Positions 227-30,457 are shown, counted from the stretch's first letter. The stretch: 30,457 nt of DNA from Candidatus Bathyarchaeota archaeon (GCA_965612785.1 CBFDTC010000007.1:1-30457); one strand, 5' to 3'. Numbers and translations: made by a program. The notes: generated from the sequence alone by a model not told the origin.

Positions 227-1123
227 TTAGATTCTGCGGCGGAGCTGGGCCAGGTAGGCCAGGTACTTCGGGTACTGCTGTTCAGCCATCCTCTCAACGT
301 CTATGTAGTGCTCCTCTAAGACGGTCTTCGGCCTCTCGCCCGCCAGCAGCCTTATTACGTCTGGTGTGAGGCCTGAGGAGTACATGGCGTTCATCGCGAA
401 CTTCCTGACGTACTTGAGCCGTGTCAGCCCGCGCCTGTAAGCCACTCTGAAACTGTCTTTGTTGATTCTGAAGCCCCCTTCGACGGCCTCTCTGATGAGC
501 TCGAGCGTCTCTGGCGTTATGTGTAGCCTGAAGCACGCCTTTGTACGCTTCACCATGTTTACTTCGTAGATGTAGAATTCGCCCGTCTTCGCCTTCCTCA
601 GCCTCCTCTCGTCCCACGTTTTGAGGACTTGTACGACGTGCGTAGGCCTCGACGGACTCTCGAGAACCACGTTGTAGACGGCTTGAAACTCGACCGGCAG
701 CTCCCTGACCTTCCTGAAAGTTTCGACTATCTCCTCCTCGCTTGGGACGTGTCTGTCAGCCCTCACCCTCACGGTTGGAACGGCCTCCTTGAGCTCCTCG
801 TACCTGTCCCTCGGAAGCCCGTAGTAGATTCTGTAGACTTTCAGCAGAATCTTGAAAGCCTTAGCCAGGTGGTCCCTGCCCCGCCCGCACCTGCTGAACA
901 TGTCGAGAACGTCTCTCGGCGACTTTATCGGCTCAGTCATGTGCCTGTCGAGCGTGCTCACCAAGTCCTTGACGTAGCTCGGGTCCCTGCCCGTAAGATG
1001 CTTCACGAACGTCTCCCTGACCTCCGAGTTCCAGACGACCGGCCGACCACCGCTCTCAACCCTCTCACCCGTAAGCCGTTCAAGCGCTATCTTCACGGCC
1101 TCCGCGAGTACGCTGCTAAGCAT
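227..1123 (-). CDS. Tyrosine recombinase / integrase of an integrated element
   Basis: The C-terminal region reads YRRGLTRLKYVRKFAMNAMYSSGLTPDVIRLLAGERPKTVLEEHYIDV, which fits the R..(H/K)xxR..Y catalytic layout of archaeal tyrosine integrases. The gene lies directly beside a tRNA 3'-half. Start taken as Met-86 of the track ORF (ATG at 1123), which has AATTAATAA 27 nt upstream. The track ORF's extension to 1378 reads through the tRNA half and into the next gene's promoter. Confidence 0.7.
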   Translation of the reverse strand: MLSSVLAEAVKIALERLTGERVESGGRPVVWNSEVRETFVKHLTGRDPSYVKDLVSTLDRHMTEPIKSPRDVLDMFSRCGRGRDHLAKAFKILLKVYRIYYGLPRDRYEELKEAVPTVRVRADRHVPSEEEIVETFRKVRELPVEFQAVYNVVLESPSRPTHVVQVLKTWDERRLRKAKTGEFYIYEVNMVKRTKACFRLHITPETLELIREAVEGGFRINKDSFRVAYRRGLTRLKYVRKFAMNAMYSSGLTPDVIRLLAGERPKTVLEEHYIDVERMAEQQYPKYLAYLAQLRRRI

Positions 1124-1179
1124 GTCTATGTCAATAGCCTGCGGGAGGGAGTTATTAATTGTCTTGTTCGTGTCTGGTA

Positions 1180-1221
1180 TTGGTAAGGCGGAGATCGCGG
1201 GTTCAAATCCCGCCCGGGGCT
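1180..1221 (+). tRNA. 3' half of a tRNA gene only (anticodon loop to discriminator); likely attachment-site copy (attR); anticodon loop TTGGTAA reads GGT (Thr)
   Basis: Layout: ttGGTaa / ggcgg / agatc / GCGGG-TTCAAAT-CCCGC / CCGGGGC / t. The T-arm and 3' acceptor strand are perfect. No complementary 5' acceptor (GCCCCGG), D-arm or 5' anticodon stem lies upstream, because 1175-1179 tggta cannot pair with ggcgg. Confidence 0.65.
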
Positions 1222-1301
1222 TCAAGGACATCGGAGGGCTGTGTTGAATAATGGTTATATGCACATAAATCGCCGTGTGATTTCTATTATGGTGCGCCTG
1301 T

Positions 1302-2264
1302 TTGTCGAGCGGCTTTAGGTACGTGTTCGGGCCGGTTCCTTCGAGGAGGCTTGGCAGGAGTCTGGGCATAAACAACATCCCACCGAAGAACTGTACGTAC
1401 TCCTGCGTTTACTGTCAGCTCGGCAGGACGATGAACCTGACCGTGGAGAGGAGGACGTTCATAGACCCTGAGCTGATTCTGGATGAGGTTTCCAGGGTTG
1501 TGGAAAGGGTCGGTGAGGGGAACATAGACTACGTAACGTTCGTCCCCGACGGGGAGCCCACGCTTGACCTGAACCTGGGTAGAATAGTCTCCAGGCTGAG
1601 GGAAATCACTTCCGTGAAGCTGGCCATCCTGACGAACTCCTCGCTGATGTACAGGCCGGATGTCAGAGAGGACCTTATGAAGTTCGACCTGGTCTCCGTT
1701 AAGGTGGACTCCGTCGACGGGAAAATCTACAGACGCGTAAACAGACCCCACCCGAGCATAGAGCTCGACATGGTTCTGGACGGAATCAGGCGTTTCACGG
1801 CAGAGTACGAAGGCACCGTCATAAGCGAGACGATGCTGATAGACGGCTTAAACGACGACCTGGACGGTGTGGAGAGGGTTGCGGAGTTCCTGGCGGAGAT
1901 AGAAGTCGACAAGGCCTTCATCTCCATACCGACGAGGCCGCCCGCGGAGGGGTGGGTTAAGGCCGCCAGCGAGCAACGTGTCGTGGAGGCCTACGAGGTG
2001 TTCAGGGAGCGCTTGGGTGAGGGAAGAGTTGAGACTCTCATAGGGTACGAGGGCTCCGAGTTTGCTCTGGCCAGTGGGGACGTCAGACGGGACGTCCTGG
2101 GCATAATGGCGGTCCACCCGATGAGGCTCGACTACTTCAGGGAGGTTGTCGGTAGAGGTGGTGTGAACCCGGATACGCTCATGTCGGAGCTCCTGAGGGA
2201 GGGTTTGGTTAAGGTTGTGGAGTACAGGGGGCACAAATTCTTAATAAGGAGCTTCAGAAAGTAG
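1302..2264 (+). CDS. Radical SAM protein (COG0731-like Fe-S oxidoreductase)
   Basis: CxxxCxxC cluster motif CTYSCVYCQ, preceded by GPVPSRRLGRSLGINNIP. 320 aa with a TTG start. Confidence 0.8.
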   Translation: MSSGFRYVFGPVPSRRLGRSLGINNIPPKNCTYSCVYCQLGRTMNLTVERRTFIDPELILDEVSRVVERVGEGNIDYVTFVPDGEPTLDLNLGRIVSRLREITSVKLAILTNSSLMYRPDVREDLMKFDLVSVKVDSVDGKIYRRVNRPHPSIELDMVLDGIRRFTAEYEGTVISETMLIDGLNDDLDGVERVAEFLAEIEVDKAFISIPTRPPAEGWVKAASEQRVVEAYEVFRERLGEGRVETLIGYEGSEFALASGDVRRDVLGIMAVHPMRLDYFREVVGRGGVNPDTLMSELLREGLVKVVEYRGHKFLIRSFRK

Positions 2265-25885: not shown

Positions 25886-27445
25886 TCACTCCCACTCTAT
25901 CGTGGCCGGGGGCTTGTGGGTTATGTCGTAGACCACCCTGACGACCTCGGGAACCTCGTTCGTAATCCTCGTCGCCAGACGCTCCAGAAGGTCCCAAGGC
26001 AGTTTTGCGAAGGACGCCGTCATGGCCTCCCTGCTCTCCACAGCCCTTATGGCGACCACGTACCCGTAGGCCCTCTTGTCTCCCTTTATCCCCGTCGTCT
26101 TCACGTCCAGCAGGACCGCAAAGTACTGCCACAGCCCCTTCCACAGACCAGACTTCTCGATTTCCTCCCGGACTATGGCGTCCACACGCCTCAGAATCCT
26201 AACCTTCTCAGGTGTGACCTCCCCTATGACCCTCACGGCCAGGCCTGGGCCTGGGAACGGCTGTCTGTGGACTATCTGCTCGGGCAGGCCCAGACGCCTC
26301 GCCACCTCGCGAACCTCGTCCTTGTACAGGTCTCTTAGGGGCTCGACTATGGCCTTGAACTCCATCTTCGACGGGAGGCCTGCCACGTTGTGGTGGGTCT
26401 TTATCTTGTCTGAGAACTTCCTGAACCCGGATTCTATGCGGTCTGGGTATATGGTGCCCTGTATCAGGTACTCGGCTCCGACCTTCTTGGCTATGCGTTC
26501 GAAAACCCTGATGAAAGTCTCACCTATGATACGCCTCTTTGTCTCGGGGTCCCTGACGCCCTTCAGGGCTTCGAAGAACTCCCGGCTTGCGTCCACGACG
26601 TGTAGGTTGGGGAGCATCTTCGAGAACACCTCCCTAACGTACTCGACCTCACCCTCACGCATCAGGCCCGTGTCTATGAATATGGCGTGGAGGCGGTCTC
26701 CGAGCGCCTTGGAGGACAGCACGGCAGCCGTGCTGGAGTCTATCCCACCGCTCAGGGCTATCACGGCCTTGCCTGAACCCACGATGCTCCTTATCTCCTG
26801 TATGGCTTTGGGTATGAAGTCCTCCATGCTCCAGTTCGGCGTGCAGCCGCAGACGTTGAACACGAAGTTCTCCAGCATCTTCACCCCGTTCTCCGTGTGG
26901 ACCACCTCCGGATGCCACTGGAGGCCGTAGAACCTCCCAGACGGATCCCTGAAGGCGGCTATGGGACACGTGTCCGTCTCAGCCAAAACCTCGAATCCCT
27001 CAGGCAACTCGGCCACCAGGTCCATGTGGCTCATCCACACACGCTCCCTCGGACCCAAACCCTCTAGGACACCCACGGGCTTGAGTATCCTGGCCACCGC
27101 AACACCGTACTCAGCCTTAGTCCCACGAGCCACGTACCCGCCGAGCATCTGAGCCAGAAGCTGGTGGCCGTAGCATATCCCGAGTATCGGGACACCGGCC
27201 TCCAGGATGTCAGGCTTGGGGCGGGGGGCTCCGGGATCGTACACGCTGGCAGGCCCGCCGGAGAGGATCATGCCCTTAACCACCATCCTGTCTCGGAGTT
27301 TCATGATGTCCTCGAGACCCACGTCTCCGGGAAGTATCTCGGAGTACACGTGGAACTCTCTTATCCGACGGGCTATTAGGTGACAGTACTGCCCTCCAAA
27401 ATCTAGAACCAGGATCGTGTCTGGTCTAGCAATAGACAGTGGCAC
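25886..27445 (-). CDS. guaA: GMP synthase (glutamine-hydrolysing), fused GATase plus ATP-pyrophosphatase
   Basis: [16 protein letters not shown] and WHPEV mark the GATase. SGGIDSS is the PP-loop, and the C-terminus is PPATIEWE. Start placed at GTG 27445, which has GGAGGTG 5 nt upstream. The track's ATG at 27520 would add 25 AT-rich codons ([19 protein letters not shown]...). Confidence 0.9.
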
Positions 27446-27525
27446 ACAGACACCTCCTACTATTTTTACCTCATCATTTTGAAAAAAAAACTTAATAACG
27501 TACAATGACCTTAAAAACATAGATT

Positions 27526-28068
27526 ATGTCAGAAGAGGGGCGCGAATACTATGAAAAGACTGTGAAGGAATCAAGGGAGCTTATAGCTGAGGCTCTTCCC
27601 AGAGTTGCCCGTGACGTTTTAGCGGCAGTTGTTATTTGGTTCTTCGCCAAACTAGTCTTCGTACCAATAGCTGGGAGCCTGCAATTCCGTGGGTACCCAG
27701 TGTCTCAGATACTGAACCTAATCATTGTGATTGCCCTAGCGGTTATAGTGGTCAATATGCTAGTAAATATTCGCAGGTTGATCGACGGAGCAGCTGGGTA
27801 TGCCGCATGCAGGATCGGTGCTCCCTATGACGTCTCACCTGAGGAGGTTGAACATTACAAGACTGCGCTTAGAGGCATCTTCTATATCATCGTCGTCTCA
27901 CTGATATACCTGCTCTTCGTCGAGTTCCTCTCAAGAATCCACCCAGCGCTTTCAGCCGTAACATTGATAGCAATTGTCATCTGGGCTATATACATGATCT
28001 GGAAAGTTGTCCAGTCGATTTCAGCTGAGATAGGGCGATATACAACCAAGTGGGCTGAGAGAATCTAA
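27526..28068 (+). CDS. Four-TM membrane protein, unknown family (paralog of 28361-28804)
   Basis: ATG start with no SD and an AT-rich box ~30 nt upstream, so it is probably leaderless. Topology is a charged N-terminal helix plus 4 TM. It shares LxAxxIWxFxxLVFxPxA and IYLL...IHP blocks with the third gene. Confidence 0.6.
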   Translation: MSEEGREYYEKTVKESRELIAEALPRVARDVLAAVVIWFFAKLVFVPIAGSLQFRGYPVSQILNLIIVIALAVIVVNMLVNIRRLIDGAAGYAACRIGAPYDVSPEEVEHYKTALRGIFYIIVVSLIYLLFVEFLSRIHPALSAVTLIAIVIWAIYMIWKVVQSISAEIGRYTTKWAERI

Positions 28069-28110
28069 GTCGAACCCAGGAGTAACAATTGAATCCTAAG
28101 GAGGGGTAGA

Positions 28111-28371
28111 GTGACTTTGACCGTCAAGTTTAAGATACTGGCGCTGGCCACTGTCCTGATAACTGACTTACTTTTTTTCCTTTTCTTTGCAGTCGCTTAT
28201 CCGGGGATTTTCCAAATGATCTTAGGATCACTTCCTTGGAACGATGATCTTGAAAAACTTATCATAGTAGTTTTAGGGTTATTAATAGCTATTATAACGA
28301 CAGTGGGGGTAATACATTTTACCTTAAAAGCCATTAGTGCACCTCAAGGAGGGAAAAATTGTGACCGTTAA
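28111..28371 (+). CDS. Small (86 aa) hydrophobic membrane protein
   Basis: GTG start preceded by GGAGGGG. It has 2-3 hydrophobic helices, low GC, and overlaps the next gene by 11 nt. Confidence 0.5.
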   Translation: MTLTVKFKILALATVLITDLLFFLFFAVAYPGIFQMILGSLPWNDDLEKLIIVVLGLLIAIITTVGVIHFTLKAISAPQGGKNCDR

Positions 28372-28804
28372 GGATTCTTTAGGTGATGTTGTGCCTGAAA
28401 TGGCTACGGCCTTTTTGACAGCGTTTCTAATATGGCTTTTTGGAGTTCTTGTCTTTCTCCCTTTAGCTCGTAGGGTTGAGCCATCCAATCTTCCTTTAAT
28501 TGTGAGTGTAATTATACTTCTACCCTTCACCAGGTTCCTGTTTAAGGGCCTGAGGGGGCTGGATAAGATTTTAGATAGACTCTCCAAGAGGATTACTCAT
28601 GAGTTGGTAAGTAGGAGGGACTTGAAAAAGAAGCTTTCAACTGAGAAAATAGTTAGAGCTGTTGTCTATACAGTGGCTATCCTGATTATCTACTTATTGT
28701 ACTCTCCGTTGCTTTCAGCGATTCATCCCTCAATAAACGGGATAGCCATAGTTGTAACTATAATGATCATTTTTTGGATACTCCTCTCAAAAAGGACACT
28801 TTGA
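28361..28804 (+). CDS. Four-TM membrane protein, paralog of 27526-28068
   Basis: GTG at 28361 is preceded by AGGAGGG and is preferred over the track start at 28337. Blocks TAFLIWLFGVLVFLPLA and ILIIYLLYSPLLSAIHP align with AAVVIWFFAKLVFVPIA and SLIYLLFVEFLSRIHP of the first gene. Confidence 0.6.
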   Translation: MTVKDSLGDVVPEMATAFLTAFLIWLFGVLVFLPLARRVEPSNLPLIVSVIILLPFTRFLFKGLRGLDKILDRLSKRITHELVSRRDLKKKLSTEKIVRAVVYTVAILIIYLLYSPLLSAIHPSINGIAIVVTIMIIFWILLSKRTL

Positions 28805-28872
28805 TCCAAGAAGCGATTGCTTGAACTCTCGATCAGAAAGATTCTTAAGAGTTACCTTTGAGGGAAAGGTTT

Positions 28873-29040
28873 ATGCCCTTCGACCACCATCAACCTTGAA
28901 GCTTTCCTGATTTTCTTCGAGACCAACGCTGCCTAGGACTATCTCGGAATAGATGTGGAACTCTCCCTGATGCGGTGGGCTATCAGGTGGCAGTACCGGC
29001 CTCTGAAGCCCAGCACAACCACTGCGTCTGGCTTACGCAT
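28873..29040 (-). pseudogene. guaA: Decayed 5' fragment of guaA (first ~57 codons), same orientation as the live gene
   Basis: Translation: MRKPDAVVVLGFRGRYCHLIAHRIRE(+2 nt)FHIYSEIVLGSVGLEENQESFK(+1 nt)LMVVEGH. The live gene reads [53 protein letters not shown]. The fragment has two frameshifts, an in-frame stop, and a mutated DFGGQY motif. Confidence 0.75.
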
Positions 29041-29064
29041 CAAAGAGGATTCGACCGGAGATGC

Positions 29065-29072
29065 TTTAAATA
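29065..29072 (-). promoter_or_regulatory. Stranded TATA box (TATTTAAA) of the displaced guaA 5' end
   Basis: It lies 24 nt upstream of the remnant ATG at 29040, which is leaderless-promoter geometry. The box is near-palindromic and could also fire rightward. Confidence 0.4.
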
Positions 29073-29314
29073 GTGCCGTGTGTGATGGGCATACTGATGG
29101 CGGTCGAAGGCTTAGAGAAGGAAAAAGCCGATGAAGTCTGTAAGAGACTGTGCGGCCAAGCATGCCCCGTTCGGCGGTTCCTAAGCGGAGTTAGGGAACG
29201 CATGCATGCGCTTCTGGGGAAGCCTACACACTCATCCTGATTAAGAAGCATCGCCATTATTGTATCGTGGGGTTAATGGGCCTGTTCCTCGTTAGGCGGG
29301 GAGTTTTAGGGACT

Positions 29315-30130
29315 CTATATGCTTCCTTGCTTGCCTGAGTGTTGTGTCACCATGAACCTGCAGTATGGGTCTCCTTTAGCTAGGCATTCGGTTTCCACGA
29401 CTGTGAAGTCTACGCCGAAGATTGCCTTGAAGACGCCTGCTATGTAGCCCCTTGCAAGGTGGCTTCTGGGTTCTTTGAGCTTTCCTTTGAACGGTAGGCA
29501 CTCGAACAGCTCGAAAGCTCTTACAACGGCCTCTTTCCTTTTCTCATCGAAGACTTCTATCTCAGGCACGGCCCAGCCTTTCGCTATAACTTGTTTGAGC
29601 ACCACATCGAGAGCTCGGCGTCCCCTAAGACCGTACTTTCTCATGACTGTCTCGGCTGCGCTCACACCCGTCTTCAGGCCCATGTTGTACAGGATTGTTG
29701 CGGCTCCGGAGCCGAACATGCTGAACACTTTTTCGAAGGCCTCGCCGACGGACTCGACCTTGAACAGCACGTACCTTTCCCCCGCGAGCGTGACTGGGAA
29801 GGACAATTCATCCACGACAAGCTCCCCAACTTTCTCAGAAGACTTGACATCCAGGACCACGTCAAGCTTCTTAAGCCGTCTGGCCACGTTCTCGACTTCC
29901 AATTTGGCGTCCGTCAGGTCCACAAACCCGCTCCAGACGGCCGTCTCTTCAGAAGCCTTAGCCCTTATGAAGCCTGACAAGATGTTTATCCCCATCTCCG
30001 CCGCGAGTTGCGATATCTTCGCAAACGCTCCAGGAACGTTCTTGACCACGATGACGAACTCGGCAATCTTCCTACCGGGTCCATACTCGCTGAACAGAAC
30101 CTCCTTCTCAACATACTTTTCGAGGCCCAC
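29315..30130 (-). CDS. ACT domain plus V4R (4-vinyl-reductase-type) small-molecule-binding domain protein
   Basis: The N-terminal EFVIVVKNVPGAFAKISQLAAEMGINILSGFI is ACT-like. The C-terminus has GSGAATILYNMGLKTG and ECLAKGDPYCRFMV, typical of V4R domains. GTG start. GC is lower (~50% by eye) than in the core genes. Confidence 0.65.
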   Translation of the reverse strand: MGLEKYVEKEVLFSEYGPGRKIAEFVIVVKNVPGAFAKISQLAAEMGINILSGFIRAKASEETAVWSGFVDLTDAKLEVENVARRLKKLDVVLDVKSSEKVGELVVDELSFPVTLAGERYVLFKVESVGEAFEKVFSMFGSGAATILYNMGLKTGVSAAETVMRKYGLRGRRALDVVLKQVIAKGWAVPEIEVFDEKRKEAVVRAFELFECLPFKGKLKEPRSHLARGYIAGVFKAIFGVDFTVVETECLAKGDPYCRFMVTQHSGKQGSI

Positions 30131-30457
30131 CCAACCACCCCAAGAATATATGCACTATGCAATTTGGTATAAAAGCCTTATTTTACAGCCTTTTTTGAAC
30201 GAATAGCCCCAAATCGGAAACGGTTAATGCTTTTTCCACAAAAAAAACGGAAAGCCGTTTCGCCACATCATATGGAACATCCGTTTAACGATTGTTTTAC
30301 ACCTATATATTCCACCCATCTTAGCCTGGCCACCATCCGATACATACGCCAAAACATAGCCCAAAACACATATAAAACCCTTATAATCGCCCCTCCTCCA
30401 ATTTTAGGGCCATTATATATGCGTCTTCTCCGTCGAGGTAGTATCCCCTTATCCGGT

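Follow-up and report, generated by a model that had tools for sequence, protein, structure and literature searches.

A chimeric guaA gene with an apparently foreign promoter and start in a Bathyarchaeon, probably produced by insertion-duplication of a low-GC chromosomal fragment

When elements of the SXT type integrate, the target gene is reportedly kept functional by a promoter and an N-terminus that the element itself supplies, an observation ascribed to Hochhut and Waldor in 1999. The defining feature of the SXT family is a tyrosine recombinase, Int, which acts on nearly identical attP and attB sites (PMC2791158). A duplicated homologous locus is taken as diagnostic of a single crossover with a circle, while homology-facilitated illegitimate recombination (HFIR) usually deletes recipient DNA (PMC3240628). 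In Vibrio cholerae, incoming effector-immunity modules of the type VI secretion system reportedly take the place of resident genes, of which arrays of leftovers persist beside the new copy; the paper mentions HFIR five times (PMC5361080). Here we describe the guaA locus of a 30,457-nt contig of Candidatus Bathyarchaeota archaeon (GCA_965612785.1, CBFDTC010000007.1:1-30457; the whole stretch is referred to as the window), which its GuaA protein assigns to Bathyarchaeia. At this locus, a low-GC block carrying three genes (the cassette) lies between an intact guaA and a decayed copy of the guaA 5' end. An earlier note, made from the sequence of the window, had proposed that a low-GC insertion displaced the promoter and 5' end of guaA and supplied a new promoter, ribosome-binding site and N-terminus, and comparison with an insert-free relative bears this out. 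The same note had explained the insertion as the work of a site-specific element, and this part did not hold up. We consider it probable that the arrangement arose by homology-driven insertion-duplication of a foreign chromosomal fragment, that is, by ordinary gene transfer and not by a new kind of mobile element.

The direction of the change was evident from the closest relative without the insertion (L093, protein P0034), which was found in a search of 5.8 billion proteins. Its GuaA is 90% identical to that of the host at the amino acid level, the next relatives being at 77-81%. In L093 the radical-SAM and metallo-beta-lactamase genes lie downstream of guaA as in the host, there is no cassette, and an acetyltransferase gene is followed by a 200-nt spacer with a TATA box and then directly by guaA. 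The spacer, TATA box and guaA start of L093 align with the guaA remnant of the window and with the DNA upstream of it, the spacer and TATA box being roughly 90% identical. This match shows that the remnant is the ancestral start and that the live start arrived with the low-GC block. Besides, P0034 and the next relatives (P0035-P0043) begin with M(R/K)PD(A/G)(V/I)AVLDFGGQY, like the remnant, so that the 5' end of guaA in insert-free relatives matches the remnant and not the live start. The inactivating changes of the remnant are also present in L104, a 96.4% identical strain; the insertion therefore predates the split from L104 (3.6% divergence), and it postdates the split from L093.

The remnant (28863-29040, minus strand) consists of the original host codons 1 to ~62, with the ATG at 29040, and is frameshifted and decaying. 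It is collinear with codons 1-62 of the live gene, the two copies lying ~1605 nt apart. Local nucleotide alignment of the two regions (28860-29065 versus 27250-27470) gave a score of 93, compared with 16.5 ± 2.1 for shuffled sequences (maximum 24). The similarity that the earlier note had seen over the first ~57 codons is thus real, but it extends over ~62 codons, to ~28863. The +2 and +1 frameshifts, the stop and the altered motif described before were also found, but the damage is larger: in addition to the +2 indel after codon 30, the remnant has four single-base indels relative to the live gene (three insertions and one deletion), and it has in-frame stops and substitutions at invariant residues, with LGFRGRY where the live gene has LDFGGQY. 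In total, roughly 10-20% private change and five indels have accumulated.

The old promoter region is preserved together with the remnant. The TATA box TATTTAAA (29065-29072) stands 24 nt before the remnant ATG, as had been pointed out, and is kept in L093 as well. The 40 nt that precede the ATG are 90% identical to L093, and the remainder of the old spacer is collinear with positions 1273-1480 of L093 at similar identity. This original guaA upstream spacer (29041-29252, minus strand) holds TATTTAAA and overlaps the tail of the acetyltransferase gene. In the proximal part of the remnant, GC content at third codon positions (GC3) is 0.77, and L093 is the best match among 88 lineages, with 76% identity over codons 1-30; total GC drops from 0.62 proximally to ~0.46 distally. 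The same insertion arrangement was found in six other contigs of independent assemblies (L082-L086 and L104, 96-100% identity) and is therefore not an assembly artefact. A further contig (L081; ENA ERZ27227320, k141_49464) stops 13 nt before the remnant ATG, corresponding to ~29053 in the window, which is consistent with assembler breakage at the duplicated guaA 5' sequence. We also observed a 16-nt inverted repeat (15/16 complementary) between the distal remnant (28877-28892) and the old spacer (29095-29110), with the two arms 202 nt apart. By a rough estimate, ~0.03 such repeats are expected by chance in a 2.3-kb region, and two differences of the remnant from the live gene in this place, an extra C and a T-to-G change, both improve the repeat. 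It could fit a template-switch (quasi-palindrome) mutation, or chance.

The live guaA (25886-27445, minus strand) is intact, as the earlier note had stated. It is a 519-aa open reading frame (ORF) that begins with a GTG at 27445, contains the Pfam domains GATase (1.7e-42) and GMP_synt_C (6.5e-40), and has readable GICYGHQ, QWHPEV and SGGIDSS motifs in its translation. The features of a single-chain glutamine-hydrolysing GMP synthase, namely a class-I GATase, an ATP-pyrophosphatase PP-loop and a GMP_synt_C dimerisation domain, are all present. The same start is used by independent gene calls (P0033), a Shine-Dalgarno-like GGAGGTG is located 5 nt upstream of the GTG (27451-27457, minus strand), and the gene is kept at 96-100% across strains.

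The composition of the live gene is not uniform. Only 13 of the first 30 codons end in G or C, versus a GC3 of 0.78 in codons 41-519 (binomial p = 3e-5); the lowest value in any other 30-codon window of the gene is 0.60, and guaA of L093 has a GC3 of 0.87 over the aligned first 30 codons. The gene is composed of a foreign 5' end (27323-27445, minus strand), which includes the GTG start and codons 1 to ~41 and has low GC3, and a host-derived part (25886-27322, minus strand), which includes codons ~42-519 and the stop. Codons 70-519, which have a GC3 of 0.78, are 87% identical to guaA of L093 at the nucleotide and 92% at the amino acid level. In contrast, the best non-self nucleotide matches of the 5' end are the distant lineages L079, L061 and L047, not L093, and the N-terminus of the live protein is unlike the M(R/K)PDAVAVL of the host clade.

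The point at which foreign sequence gives way to host sequence was located by a three-way site comparison of the remnant (R), the live gene (V) and L093 (H). Within codons 5-40 there were 16 sites at which R=H and V differs, 8 at which R=V and H differs, and 8 at which V=H and R differs; the corresponding counts for codons 41-63 were 0, 20 and 13. The shift in the first two classes across codon 41, from 16:8 to 0:20, is significant (Fisher p = 2.7e-6). The last site at which the remnant agrees with L093 against the live gene is 27326 (codon 40), and the run of R=V sites begins at 27317 (codon 43), which places the exchange interval of the live guaA at 27317-27326 (minus strand, codons 40-43). 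It lies directly after the most conserved stretch of guaA, i.e., within donor-recipient homology. Host codons 41-62 are thereby present twice, as a 66-nt segment with one copy in the remnant (28863-28930, minus strand) and the other in the live gene (27260-27325).

These site classes bear directly on the explanation given in the earlier note, in which a degraded or trans-mobilised integrative element with an attP mimicking the guaA 5' end had recombined at a core (27335-27360 and 28940-28965), leaving reciprocal attL and attR arms. The topology of the locus is that expected of such an element: the insert lies between two copies of the target, guaA is made whole again by a supplied promoter and N-terminus, and GC3 of the live guaA switches near the proposed core. 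The proposed core is also the block in which the two copies are most alike. However, with 22 of 25 positions identical (88%) it is not exact, and the switch in affinity lies outside it, 10-40 nt downstream at codons 40-43. The arms are not reciprocal either, since the remnant is of host type throughout: past codon 41 none of its sites sides with L093 against the live gene and 20 side with the live gene, giving 20 shared-derived versus 0 discordant sites for the distal arm.

We also considered the distal remnant as donor DNA, which is what a reciprocal exchange would leave and what its low GC suggested. This candidate was rejected by the site counts and by two further observations. The distal remnant scored 41-46 against the host's own live gene, compared with 15.5 ± 1.9 (maximum 22) against 88 other lineages including L093, and the private substitutions of the remnant are biased from GC to AT in both halves (5:2 and 8:2). 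Such decay accounts for the AT-rich codons of the distal remnant. Of the flip in codon style described earlier, the part in the live gene was confirmed, whereas the opposite flip in the remnant reflects decay of host-lineage sequence.

The inserted block itself (~27323-28862) is contiguous and has 43% GC in a window of 57-60%; it is the sole low-GC island of the window (41-47% versus 55-63% elsewhere). Upstream of the live start is a foreign, AT-rich, divergent intergenic region (27446-27525, 80 nt), which presumably contains promoters for both guaA and the cassette. Cassette gene 1 (27526-28068, plus strand) codes for 180 aa predicted to form four long, largely hydrophobic helices. Gene 2 (28111-28371, plus strand) codes for a small, hydrophobic protein of 86 aa, and gene 3 (28337-28804, plus strand), a paralogue of gene 1, for 155 aa (147 aa from an internal start). 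A low-GC flank of 58 nt (28805-28862) extends from there to the remnant junction. GC3 of the cassette genes is 0.37-0.52, compared with 0.77-0.83 in neighbouring host genes. Besides the cassette genes, 27446-28862 contains just two ORFs of 60 aa or more, frames of 87 and 64 aa that overlap these genes, and no integrase domain was found in the three cassette proteins; the statement of the earlier note that no integrase lies between the junctions was thus correct.

We identified 31 homologues of the 180-aa protein, with 44-72% identity, and every named one was from Bathyarchaeota (metagenome-assembled genomes). The gene 2 protein is 41-45% identical to the middle cassette gene product in L087-L097, where the order is the same, and the gene 3 protein 36-52% identical to the third cassette gene product of other lineages. 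The products of genes 1 and 3 share 26% identity (E about 1e-10), and the two are likewise paralogues in every other cassette-bearing lineage. The cassette thus seems to encode a pair of related helical membrane proteins and, in addition, a small protein. An AlphaFold model of the 180-aa protein (predicted local distance difference test, pLDDT, of 84.5) has four long helices; a Foldseek search of PDB with this model returned nothing at E <= 0.001 and solely designed helical bundles at E > 0.5. No family was above threshold for the cassette proteins in Pfam, NCBIfam, PHROGs or PADLOC. The 58-nt flank had no homology to guaA, to L093 or to the 3' ends of the purF-like genes of cassette-bearing lineages. 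In L082, ~79 nt are absent at the 3' end of gene 3 (around 4870, corresponding to window 28750-28828), and a product of 135 aa is called there versus 147-155 aa; this difference suggests relaxed constraint on the gene 3 C-terminus or on the flank.

A clue to the origin of the block was found in other lineages. In L087, L088 and L089 (B26-2 type), L091, L094 and L095, guaA on the minus strand is followed by the three cassette genes on the plus strand in the same order, with a spacing of 87-110 nt and a purF-like gene on the far side. The 80-nt spacing in the window resembles that in L087, L091 and L094 (87-110 nt). In the native lineages the GC content of the cassette equals that of the genome (51% in 52.5%; 37% in 40%), and a search for guaA remnants beside the cassettes of other lineages found none. 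The adjacency of cassette and guaA is native in at least three other Bathyarchaeia lineages. Because the cassette natively adjoins guaA elsewhere, the guaA piece carried by the insert is its natural flank, not an attP evolved to mimic the target as previously suggested. On this comparison of gene order and composition, the insert appears to be a chromosomal cassette from another, lower-GC Bathyarchaeia lineage. Two other loci showed further variation in this region. In L096 (4681-5001) the cassette and the purF-like gene are present and guaA is missing between a proteasome gene and the cassette, and in L012 (around 8560), where the cassette is absent, purF-like gene and guaA share a strand and only a few codons separate the end of the former from the latter. 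Rearrangement between purF and guaA has therefore been recurrent in Bathyarchaeia.

Since the adjacency is widespread in another Bathyarchaeia clade, the cassette-guaA arrangement might be ancestral in the host clade and lost in L093 and its relatives, with the remnant representing a later partial duplication of guaA. We regard this as extremely unlikely. The cassette and the first 40 codons have 43% GC, with GC3 of 0.37-0.52 in the genes, in a genome with GC3 of ~0.8, and the N-terminus of the live protein falls outside the host clade. The collinearity of the L093 spacer, TATA box and start with the remnant puts the remnant in the ancestral position. Moreover, when the 80 best guaA loci of GTDB representatives were inspected, the cassette was absent within 10 kb in every case, and the neighbours of guaA in these loci were not conserved. 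A different interpretation of the adjacency is that the cassette, the divergent promoter and the guaA 5' arm together form a recurrent, integrase-less "homing" module, which would pass between Bathyarchaeia through host homologous recombination at guaA and replace the guaA promoter and start each time; its presence in several lineages would then reflect repeated captures and not shared ancestry. We think that there is little chance that this is the case.

The same data narrow the case for an integrative element. Several observations around the locus are in its favor: an SSV-type integrase gene is present in the window at 227-1378, the cassette occurs in more than one genomic context, and integrase-driven insertion does take place in the vicinity, 200 nt upstream, where there are a V4R segment with an 8-nt direct repeat and, in other strains, a tailed provirus (see below). 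On the other hand, there is no integrase in or beside the block, the only one of the window being 26 kb away, and L104, which has the insertion, has neither the V4R nor the provirus DNA next to it. The cargo is chromosomal, has native GC content in other lineages and stands beside guaA there without remnants. Neither the insert DNA nor the 180-aa protein had a match in the phage or plasmid records searched, and the 180-aa family had none in IMG/VR. Taken together, a site-specific element, degraded or mobilised in trans, is a very unlikely source of this arrangement.

Insertion-duplication of a chromosomal fragment, which we prefer, may be pictured as follows. The ancestor would have had an L093-like order, with the acetyltransferase gene, a 200-nt spacer, a TATA box ~25 nt before the start codon and guaA. 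A fragment of ~1.5-1.7 kb would have come from a lower-GC Bathyarchaeon in which the cassette is divergent beside guaA, and would have contained the cassette, the shared intergenic promoter region and the 5' end of the donor guaA. This fragment would then have recombined with the host guaA through its homologous arm, in the best-conserved stretch of the gene. The product would have had, in order, the host promoter with codons 1-62 (now a pseudogene), the cassette, and the donor promoter, Shine-Dalgarno sequence and codons 1-40 in frame with host codons 41-519. The simplest route would be a Campbell-type single crossover of a circularised ~1.7-kb fragment that extended from donor guaA codon ~62 to just past the cassette, with a heteroduplex or conversion tract over codons ~41-62 that was resolved to host type in both products. 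Alternatively, one homologous and one illegitimate junction between two chromosome copies might have given the same result.

The latter route corresponds to HFIR, in which a linear fragment would be anchored by its guaA arm at codons ~40-43 while an illegitimate junction links its other end to a second copy of the chromosome with a break at codon ~62. Short foreign fragments anchored by homology at a single point are known to integrate in this way (PMC3240628). In agreement with it, one junction of the block lies inside homology and the other (28862/28863) is without homology, and it predicts host type for both copies of codons 41-62 without a conversion tract and would give rise to the 66-nt duplication directly. 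However, the events described typically delete recipient DNA, and duplications were ascribed to single crossovers with circles (PMC3240628). HFIR would also need two chromosome copies and an extra break, and in the literature searched it turned up for bacteria alone. Many archaea are polyploid, although this is not known for the present lineage. Overall, HFIR comes close as an alternative but is an unlikely route, and the structure of the locus is compatible with both the circle with a conversion tract and the unequal two-chromosome event.

Several observations weigh against insertion-duplication in the form given above. First, the closest cassette homologue is just 72% identical, and the new intergenic region could not be aligned with those of cassette-bearing lineages, there being no nucleotide conservation beyond the gene 1 start. 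As there is no closer donor in the databases, the guaA-cassette adjacency in the donor rests on synteny in related lineages. Second, the nearest nucleotide matches of the foreign 5' arm are low-GC lineages without a cassette within 10 kb, and given its shortness and strong conservation the arm does not allow placement at the clade level. Third, the cassette moved more than once, being present away from guaA in L090 and L096. Fourth, a plain single crossover predicts a donor-type distal remnant, which was not seen, so that a further event must be assumed, such as a conversion tract or unequal recombination involving two chromosomes. Within the remnant, private changes are more frequent distally (13/69) than proximally (8/108; p = 0.03, or p = 0.17 with ambiguous sites), as are indels, and some donor-type patches might still be present in the distal part. 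Finally, no more than 58 nt separate the last cassette gene from the left edge of the block, a tidier end than a random fragment would be expected to have.

With regard to function, the GuaA protein is almost unchanged, the real differences in its sequence being confined to the first 10-14 residues. The signals in front of the gene differ to a greater extent. In the host clade (the remnant, L093 and L001-L003) a TATA box is located ~25-30 nt before the start codon, a spacing which suggests leaderless mRNAs. The new 5' untranslated region consists of a longer AT-rich intergenic region with a strong Shine-Dalgarno sequence, as in cassette-bearing lineages. The main effect of the insertion is likely regulatory, in that a leaderless, TATA-proximal start of guaA would have given way to a Shine-Dalgarno-led one. 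Its transcription and translation signals now seem to be foreign and to lie in a region common to the cassette genes.

The ~300-nt host segment that contains the remnant is sandwiched between two insertions. The second one (29261-30408, 1,148 nt) contains a gene with ACT and V4R domains (29315-30130, minus strand) and is flanked by an 8-nt direct repeat, GCCATTAT, at 29253-29260 and 30409-30416. It is located in the 3' end of the acetyltransferase gene, which thereby gained a new C-terminus (...IMALKLEEGRL, then stop). The displaced last codons of that gene (29225-29260, minus strand; MAMLLNQDECV, then stop) align with its 3' end in L093 and L104, and in both L104 (the 96% identical strain) and L093 the gene is uninterrupted. 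The V4R insertion is separate from, and later than, the guaA insertion. In L081 (1-9711) and L083 (3637-4306), a tailed-virus block with a tape measure protein, a 1576-aa Laminin_G/PA14 protein and a large terminase abuts the V4R segment. The window holds the acetyltransferase gene there instead and diverges from L081 and L083 exactly at 30421, within CATATATA(A)TGGCC. The virus block resembles a provirus whose insertion point is almost identical, and the 3' end of the acetyltransferase gene may be an integration hot spot, which may also explain, as a difference between strains, the end of the contig here. The far end of the provirus was sought via the terminase in IMG/VR; relatives were at <=50% identity, and no integrase or att site was recovered. 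The integrase gene mentioned above is a 383-aa ORF (227-1378, minus strand) with an archaeal phage integrase domain (PF16795, E = 1e-21), located at the start of the contig beside housekeeping genes and 26 kb from guaA. Any element to which it belongs would be off-contig.

The locus provides a well-resolved case of natural gene transfer in an uncultured archaeal class, in which guaA became chimeric and its old start survives as a pseudogene "fossil" that can be dated. It also illustrates that low GC and a duplicated gene end do not by themselves make an insert a mobile element; what decided the matter was synteny in other lineages together with the site-by-site analysis of affinity. Apart from the regulatory change, the outcome is that of ordinary recombination.

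Comparison with the described systems is consistent with this view. Like SXT/R391 at prfC (PMC2791158), the guaA insertion is at the 5' end of a conserved housekeeping gene and replaces that end. Unlike SXT/R391, it has no integrase, exact repeat or reciprocal arms, and its cargo is an ordinary chromosomal cassette; of the features that define a site-specific element, it shows none but the restored target gene. With HFIR in transformable bacteria and E. coli conjugation (PMC3240628), the locus shares a foreign fragment of ~1-2 kb with homology at one end and a junction without homology at the other. It differs in that HFIR generally deletes a similar-sized piece of recipient DNA with 3-10 bp of microhomology, whereas a 66-nt duplication is seen here. 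The effector-immunity modules of V. cholerae, as reported in PMC5361080, are similar in leaving displaced resident sequence beside the new copy; they concern other organisms and genes, whereas here the 5' end and promoter of a housekeeping gene were displaced and the live gene is chimeric. Compared with Campbell-type insertion-duplication, the arm is homeologous (the conserved block aside, identity is ~65%), both copies of the distal duplicated part are of host type, for which a conversion tract or another step is needed, and a circular intermediate would have formed in a natural event in an uncultured archaeon. Nevertheless, the guaA locus shows three features of this class: a direct duplication flanks the insert, the exchange took place inside homology, and one copy of the gene is functional while the other is truncated.

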